Positions 11,167 to 12,833 of a stretch of DNA of 12,853 nt are shown piece after piece. The position numbers and the translations under genes are program-made. Each line of letters starts with the position of its first letter. Within the stretch, counting starts at the first letter, position 1. Below the pieces are notes generated by a model. That model did no database searches and was not told the origin of the DNA. It saw only the letters and a list, made by a program, of their open reading frames with translations. This stretch comes from a virus, in the UHGV virus genome UHGV-1704341; one strand, 5' to 3'.

Positions 11167-11908
11167 GCCGGAAATCTTACCCCAACGTAAATGCTGCAAA
11201 TCAGTATGCCCGGGATGTCGTGCGCGGAAAGATTGTTGCCTGCCAGTTTGTGATTCAGGCCTGCCAGCGCCATCTTGATGACCTGATGGCGGAAAAAAGT
11301 AAGTCGTTTCGTTACCGCTTCGACAAGGACCTGGCTGAACGGGCCGCCAAATTTATTCAGCTGTTGCCGCACACCAAGGGTGAGTGGGCATTTAAACGGA
11401 TGCCCATCACGCTGGAGCCGTGGCAGCTATTTGTGATCTGCTGTGCGTTTGGCTGGGTCAATAAAGGCACCCGGTTGCGCCGCTTCCGGGAGGTGTATAC
11501 CGAAATTCCCCGTAAGAACGGTAAATCGGCAATCTCTGCCGGTGTTGCCCTGTATTGTTTTGCCTGTGATAACGAGTTTGGCGCGGAAGTGTATTCCGGT
11601 GCCACGACAGAGAAACAGGCGTGGGAAGTCTTTCGTCCGGCGCGACTGATGTGTAAACGCACACCAATGCTGACGGAAGCGTTCGGGATTGAGGTTAACG
11701 CCTCAAACATGAACCGTCCGGAGGATGGCGCGCGGTTTGAACCGCTGATCGGTAACCCCGGTGATGGTTCATCACCCCACTGTGCGGTGGTGGATGAATA
11801 TCACGAGCACGCCACCGATGCGCTTTACACCACGATGCTTACCGGGATGGGGGCGCGACGTCAGCCACTGATGTGGGCCATCACCACTGCCGGGTACAAC
11901 ATTGAGGG

Positions 11909-11940
11909 GCCGTGCTACGACAAGGCCGTGCTACGACAAG
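11909..11940. repeat. Perfect 16-bp tandem duplication (gccgtgctacgacaag x2) inside terL
   Basis: Units at 11909-11924 and 11925-11940 are identical. The duplication inserts the residues AVLRQ... and shifts the frame. Confidence 0.9.
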
Positions 11941-12833
11941 CGGCGGGAAGTCATCGAGATGCTCAACGGCTCGGTGCCCAACGATGAACTGTTCGGGATC
12001 ATCTATACCGTTGATGAAGGTGACGACTGGACCGACCCGCAGGTGCTGGAAAAAGCCAATCCAAATATTGGCGTGTCGGTTTATCGCGAATTTTTGTTAA
12101 GTCAGCAGCAGCGTGCGAAAAATAACGCCCGTCTGGCAAACGTCTTTAAAACAAAACACCTCAATATCTGGGTGTCGGCGCGTTCGGCGTATTTCAACCT
12201 GGTGAGCTGGCAGAGCTGTGAGGATAAATCACTGACTCTTGAGCAATTCGAGGGGCAGCCGTGCATTCTGGCCTTTGACCTGGCGCGTAAACTGGATATG
12301 AACAGCATGGCGCGACTTTATACCCGCGAGATTGACGGTAAAACGCATTACTACAGTGTGGCCCCTCGTTTCTGGGTACCGTATGACACGGTGTACAGCG
12401 TCGAGAAAAATGAAGATCGCCGGACAGCCGAACGCTTTCAGAAATGGGTGGAAATGGGCGTCCTGACAGTTACCGATGGTGCAGAGGTGGATTATCGCTA
12501 CATCCTCGAAGAGGCCAAAGCGGCGAACAAAATCAGCCCGGTCAGCGAGTCACCCATCGACCCCTTCGGGGCGACCGGGCTGTCACATGACCTTGCTGAT
12601 GAAGACCTGAACCCCATCACCATCATTCAGAACTACACCAACATGTCCGATCCGATGAAAGAGCTGGAAGCGGCGATTGAATCGGGGCGCTTTCATCATG
12701 ATGGCAATCCCATCATGACCTGGTGTATCGGCAACGTGGTCGGCAAAACCATCCCGGGTAACGATGATGTGGTGAAGCCCGTCAAAGAGCAGGCGGAAAA
12801 CAAAATCGATGGTGCAGTTGCGCTGATTATGGC

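Follow-up and report, generated by a model that had tools for sequence, protein, structure and literature searches.

The sequence analysed here (one stretch of 12,853 nt, hereafter the window) comes from a temperate phage that is integrated in E. coli and represents its early-right, lysis and packaging end; positions 3-12835 match the E. coli genomes ECONIH1 and FDAARGOS_497. The whole window was globally aligned to FDAARGOS_497, and a variable patch was checked against ECONIH1. In relatives of the ECONIH1/FDAARGOS_497 type, the genes run in the order HNH endonuclease, P27-family terS, terL (577 aa, WP_000088159.1), ymfR, portal, HK97-family prohead protease and major capsid protein, all of them annotated as intact, and a related terminase region is present in ~1,400 complete genomes. 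The HNH gene and terS also lie directly upstream of terL in the window, where the final 77 nt of terL fall outside; the portal gene, which follows terL in identical relatives, lies past the window edge. The coordinates of all features and lesions are given in Table 1.

Table 1. Terminase-region features of the window and its differences from intact relatives.
Feature	Position	Strand	Remarks
13-nt tandem duplication	1143-1155		Start of the repressor gene
61-nt deletion	1373/1374		ymfT
1-nt insertion	1672		ymfL
9-nt tandem duplication	2872-2880		Helix-turn-helix gene, in frame
33-nt deletion	8176/8177		T-tract after GC-rich hairpin
16-nt deletion	9110/9111		Gene annotated 'lysis protein' in the reference
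HNH endonuclease gene	10276..10570	+	Carries a frameshifting 56-bp deletion; annotation of the intact copy from relatives
56-nt deletion	10387/10388		HNH endonuclease gene
terS (P27 family, Pfam Terminase_4)	10697..11166	+	Carries a 25-bp deletion
25-nt deletion	10713/10714		terS
terL 5' part as ORF	11163..11987	+	ATG at 11163, 274 codons; from the ORF list and translation
16-nt tandem duplication	11908-11923		terL; position in the alignment
Duplication copy 1	11909..11924	+	terL codons 249-254, PCYDK region
Duplication copy 2	11925..11940	+	Extra 16 nt, shift the frame by +1; absent in every relative examined
terL 3' part (nuclease domain), +1 frame	11941..12835	+	100% identical to the reference
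Degraded window end	12836..12853	+	Collinear with the reference; six changes to G, one T-to-A and a 2-nt loss, giving a 12-G run

Within terL, the 16-mer GCCGTGCTACGACAAG occurs in two exact copies arranged head to tail, and the local order reads ATTGAGGG GCCGTGCTACGACAAG GCCGTGCTACGACAAG CGGCGGGAAG. The tandem 16-bp duplication that the first-pass annotation of this DNA had reported at 11909-11940 is therefore present as described. Tandem Repeats Finder returned an array at 11908-11940 (period 16, 2.1 copies, 100% matches), and no further copy of GCCGTGCTACGACAAG was found elsewhere in the window. Exact tandem duplications with a unit of at least 9 nt number three in the window, versus 0.06 expected from mononucleotide shuffles of the window, and zero in the 15-kb reference copy; for a tandem 16-mer, simple arithmetic gives a chance expectation of ~12,853 x 4^-16, or ~3e-6. 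The tandem duplication in terL is not a chance pattern.

The added 16 nt equal 1 nt modulo 3. The upstream terL frame ends at a TGA at 11985-11987, with a 274-aa product composed of the native codons 1-254 followed by 20 out-of-frame residues, and reading in +1 meets no stop from 11902 onwards until the window ends. Both the upstream stop and a terL remainder that continues in +1 as far as the edge had been claimed, and translation confirmed the two. After removal of one GCCGTGCTACGACAAG copy, terL 11163-12835 is identical to the reference at every base, and the repaired translation equals WP_000088159.1 (577 aa) at 552/552 residues, so that the continuous protein expected from such a removal is indeed restored over the first 552 residues of the reference TerL. 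In a global alignment to NZ_CP033850.1, terL differs by one 16-nt insertion only, until the final 18 nt. A single frameshift relative to phage terminases had been predicted at this point, and the 16-bp insertion is the sole internal difference from the intact gene of close relatives. Outside the duplication, terL matches intact copies at every base, and the duplication therefore appears to be unique and young.

The identification of the gene as a terminase large subunit was borne out by Pfam, with one domain matched per frame. The product of 11163-11984 matches the ATPase model only (TerL_ATPase, PF03354, E = 5.8e-26), and the +1-frame translation of 11902-12852 matches the nuclease model only (TerL_nuclease, PF20441, E = 9.6e-33). 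In the intact reference TerL, the two domains span residues 86-256 and 268-558, respectively, and the duplication, at codons 249-254, sits at the junction between them. The Walker A (PRKNGKS, residue 116) and Walker B (VVDEYHE, residue 209) motifs are both located in the native part. The closest solved structure to TerL is that of HK97 TerL (6Z6D, E = 3e-25, aligned residues 80-556), in which D302, D388 and D471 are the catalytic residues of the nuclease and F239 is a residue of the adenine-binding pocket (PMC9410871). In the alignment to 6Z6D, HK97 D302 corresponds to D367, D471 to the IDG motif at ~545 (~D545), and F239 to ~residue 300; D302, D388, D471 and F239 all align downstream of residue 254, i.e. 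past the frameshift. The locus encodes an ATPase domain with Walker A and B motifs as well as an RNase-H-like nuclease domain with catalytic aspartates, as found in TerL proteins of the HK97 type, but the two domains do not share one continuous frame. Judged by its sequence, the terL of the window is a pseudogene of the HK97/SfV-type large terminase family and not a working member.

Translation from the terL start codon would yield 254 correct and 20 wrong residues and then terminate. The predicted product lacks the region aligned to F239 and all of the nuclease domain, the part of TerL responsible for cos cutting, and, given this domain content, it would be expected neither to cut nor to translocate DNA. 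The genes directly upstream are damaged as well. In terS, which also carries a synonymous A-to-G change at 10705, the deletion follows codon 6, and translation from the native ATG (10697) runs for 20 codons before meeting a stop at 10757; a 106-aa terS fragment is present among public proteins, but is also an internal-start version of the intact terS. In HK97, the HNH protein promotes cos cleavage as part of an HNH-assisted cos packaging system (PMC9410871). Since the HNH gene and terS are frameshifted by deletions in addition to terL, the element is predicted to be unable to package its own genome. The earlier statement that it could not package DNA appears sound and, since the HNH gene is broken besides terS, would hold more strongly than had been put forward. 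Overall, the feature is very probably a loss-of-function terL frameshift without a role of its own, residing in an SfV/SfII-like E. coli prophage; the duplication as such would serve no function. No observation made here speaks against the frameshift reading.

Two observations concern the stretch just upstream of terL. The GenBank records of SfV and SfIV start at the base aligned to window position 10630, between the HNH gene and terS, which suggests that a cos end lies near this position. In the alignment to the reference, no lesions were found within 10389-10704, and since this stretch is lesion-free the element might be packaged by a related helper phage.

The duplication was then followed through sequence collections. 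An 81-nt query over the duplication aligned to the best E. coli matches listed in two pieces spanning 65 nt, which corresponds to one copy, and 0 of 1,092 complete E. coli genomes exceeded the gap-limited identity of 98.1%. The duplication junction gave 0 matches in GTDB representative genomes, IMG/VR and JGI metagenomes, the arrangement was found in none of 25 phage records, and the 274-aa product was absent from a gene-position index and from ~15 billion proteins; the intact 577-aa TerL is present on at least 1000 contigs. Homologues carrying the duplicated residues in frame, which the first-pass annotation had named as evidence that would speak against its reading, were looked for in E. coli genomes, GTDB, IMG/VR, JGI metagenomes and proteins, and none were found. 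The same holds for other lesions of the window: none of six lesion-specific ORF products occurred among ~15 billion public proteins, and 0 matches were obtained for the terS deletion junction in metagenomes and for the HNH deletion junction in GTDB genomes.

Compared with its intact relatives, the window carries nine indels, comprising three perfect tandem duplications, one 1-nt insertion and five deletions (16-61 nt), and the only isolated base changes remaining are two, at positions 2 and 10705. Natural terS-terL alleles diverged by up to ~4% measure exactly 2,225 nt in 35/37 evenly sampled full-length matches. At the eight breakpoints of at least 9 nt, microhomology totals 3 nt versus a mean of 5.45 nt under random placement (P = 0.002 for a total of at least 16 nt), and the breakpoints therefore look random and not slippage-driven. 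In E. coli, such deletions usually come about by slippage between direct repeats, but the five deletions here have breakpoint microhomologies of 0, 0, 0, 1 and 0 nt, and slippage was therefore rejected as their cause. The terL duplication is flanked by 1 nt of microhomology only.

Two further candidates were tried and rejected. A patch of 12 substitutions at 2845-3089 was discarded as a lesion, as it represents an FDAARGOS_497-specific difference that is gone when the window is compared to ECONIH1. A local hairpin that might have predisposed terL to the duplication was likewise dropped, as the unduplicated sequence folds no better than shuffles (as DNA, z = +1.4).

Some of the remaining lesions, and one repeat, deserve a separate description. 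In the LexA-family repressor gene (minus strand, 1143-1178), the 13-nt duplication puts the native ATG (1178-1176) out of frame, and an ATG inside the duplicated unit enters the frame instead; the resulting 224-aa ORF is unchanged in length, starts with MTSV versus MKTV, and has its new start 13 nt further from the original ribosome-binding region. With the 33-nt deletion, located between a small hypothetical gene and the holin gene, the T-tract directly following the hairpin GAGGCCGCCTACGGGCGGCC is gone, and the deletion probably removes an intrinsic terminator. At 2664-2727, the helix-turn-helix gene contains a 15/30-nt repeat, TCTGACCCGTCAAAA, in 4.3 copies, which encodes DPSKSDASKS-like repeats and shows no difference from the reference copy in the alignment; it could represent origin iterons. 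The degraded stretch at 12836-12853 looks like a low-quality read end at the tip of a contig.

The pattern of indels is unlike usual prophage decay, and an artefact or manipulation of the sequence is therefore a serious rival account of the lesions. The duplication and the eight other indels would then be absent from the DNA of the organism and would have entered while the sequence was being produced, whether as amplification or template-switch chimeras, by faulty assembly, or because the sequence of a normal ECONIH1-type prophage was altered deliberately or in silico; we rate this at slightly under an even chance. It is favoured by the excess of nine indels (duplications of 13, 9 and 16 nt, a 1-nt insertion, and deletions of 61, 33, 16, 56 and 25 nt) over two isolated base changes, in a phage whose natural terS-terL alleles diverge by substitution at a length constant in 35/37, and by the random-looking breakpoints with their 3 nt of microhomology. 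The absence of all six lesion-specific ORF products and of the terS and HNH junctions from the collections searched points the same way, as does the decay of the window end to poly-G, which is typical of low-quality read ends; moreover, three hits in one pathway (HNH, terS, terL) would be redundant for selection. The nature of the indels argues for the opposite: short-read de Bruijn assembly needs spanning reads to create a 16-nt tandem duplication, typical sequencing errors affect 1-2 nt versus the 16-61 nt seen here, and all three longer insertions are perfect tandem duplications, which is polymerase-like and unlike the output of naive random-insertion simulators.

Slow decay of a cryptic prophage in the course of domestication, with the duplication as one of many neutral lesions gathered over a long time, is unlikely. 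Defective prophages with broken terminase genes are common, and strains of the E. coli K-12 lineage (DH1, XL10-Gold and others) as well as HB101 keep only the 3' 1,137 nt of the same terL, at 97.9% identity. This retained part, which covers reference-query bases 1089-2225 (~window 11785-12853) and is annotated 'terminase large subunit', is presumably a remnant of the e14 cryptic prophage. However, the K-12 remnant displays what is usual in decay, namely a large truncation together with 2% substitutions, and natural alleles diverge by substitutions at conserved length, whereas the window, in which slow decay should have left many substitutions, has essentially none over 12.8 kb relative to intact copies; its lesions are also unique in the collections searched. 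Most of the probability that remains after artefact and slow decay falls to mutations that are real and arose, as a set, very recently.

It is improbable that all nine indels are genuine products of a process in vivo that repeatedly broke and rejoined the prophage DNA without homology. Such a course could, for example, involve repeated nuclease attack, by a self-targeting defence or by restriction, followed by end-joining and fill-in. If true, blunt deletions and short tandem duplications would have disabled regulation, lysis and packaging in one burst, and E. coli prophages could be domesticated rapidly by 'scarring' of this kind.

The duplication might also be a reversible on/off switch, or a target-site duplication left by an excised mobile element, and we give these two possibilities a very slim chance. 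A 16-bp tandem duplication can revert precisely, the exact loss of one copy restores the wild-type gene, and the duplications of the window (9, 13 and 16 nt) fall within the size range of target-site duplications. Contingency repeats vary in copy number among strains; here, two copies only are present in the window and one copy in the best E. coli matches listed. The three duplicated units share no motif, bacterial IS excision is not known to leave both copies of the target as a rule, and no element that duplicates a 16-bp target is known to us at this site.

Least credible of all is a terL that still functions, either through a +1 ribosome shift between 11925 and 11987 that would produce full-length TerL, or through ATPase and nuclease halves cooperating as two polypeptides: the frameshift does fall exactly at the domain junction, and an in-frame ATG at 11959, preceded 8 nt upstream by the weak Shine-Dalgarno-like GGGAAG and overlapping the upstream stop region, could in principle give rise to a free nuclease-domain fragment, but the arrangement is found in no homologue from the 1,092 E. 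coli genomes and the 25 phage records, from GTDB representatives, IMG/VR and JGI metagenomes, or from 15 billion proteins. The 63-nt overlap at 11925-11987, GCC GTG CTA CGA CAA GCG GCG GGA AGT CAT CGA GAT GCT CAA CGG CTC GGT GCC CAA CGA TGA, read by eye, holds no known +1 slippery motif, and the local strand, folded as DNA, is no more stable than shuffles (z = +1.4). Programmed ribosomal frameshifting is recognised by conservation in homologues, a slippery sequence and a stimulatory structure, and none of the three was found, the last as judged from the DNA-strand fold. A rescued protein would still have a scrambled linker, and terS and the HNH gene would be dead regardless. In T4 gp17, separated domains are not known to support packaging, which counts against a functional split TerL.

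As a loss-of-function frameshift, the terL lesion is by its sequence an ordinary frameshift pseudogene of a well-known gene. A frameshifted terminase gene marks a prophage that would be unable to package, and annotators should record one pseudogene here, not two genes. On its own, the lesion carries little weight, and its practical value is cautionary: apart from nine small indels with random-looking breakpoints and a degraded end, the window reproduces exactly a prophage that is widespread and apparently intact. All lesion findings made here, in terS, the HNH gene, and the lysis and immunity genes, thus constitute one linked question of provenance and not independent biology. Should all of these lesions prove genuine, a burst made up of indels alone would merit an explanation.

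Among known systems, the TerL of ECONIH1 and FDAARGOS_497 is the nearest, sharing every base of 11163-12835 once one copy of the duplication is removed, as well as the same HNH gene and P27-family terS upstream; it differs in that the window copy is duplicated and split into two frames, with deletions in terS and the HNH gene. The terS-terL regions of SfII, SfIV, SfV, SfI and vB_EcoM-720R4, isolated temperate phages of Shigella and E. coli, have 95-96% nucleotide identity, with both subunits annotated as intact, but are set apart by ~4-5% substitutions and have no duplication. The terL remnant of K-12 is, like the window copy, a dead copy of the same terL family; there, however, the 5' half was lost in one large event and substitutions have accumulated, whereas the window copy is complete and substitution-free and carries a small duplication. 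HK97 TerL (6Z6D) has the same two-domain design of a packaging ATPase and an RNase-H-like nuclease, but is distant, with mostly non-identical aligned columns, and is a single, intact protein.
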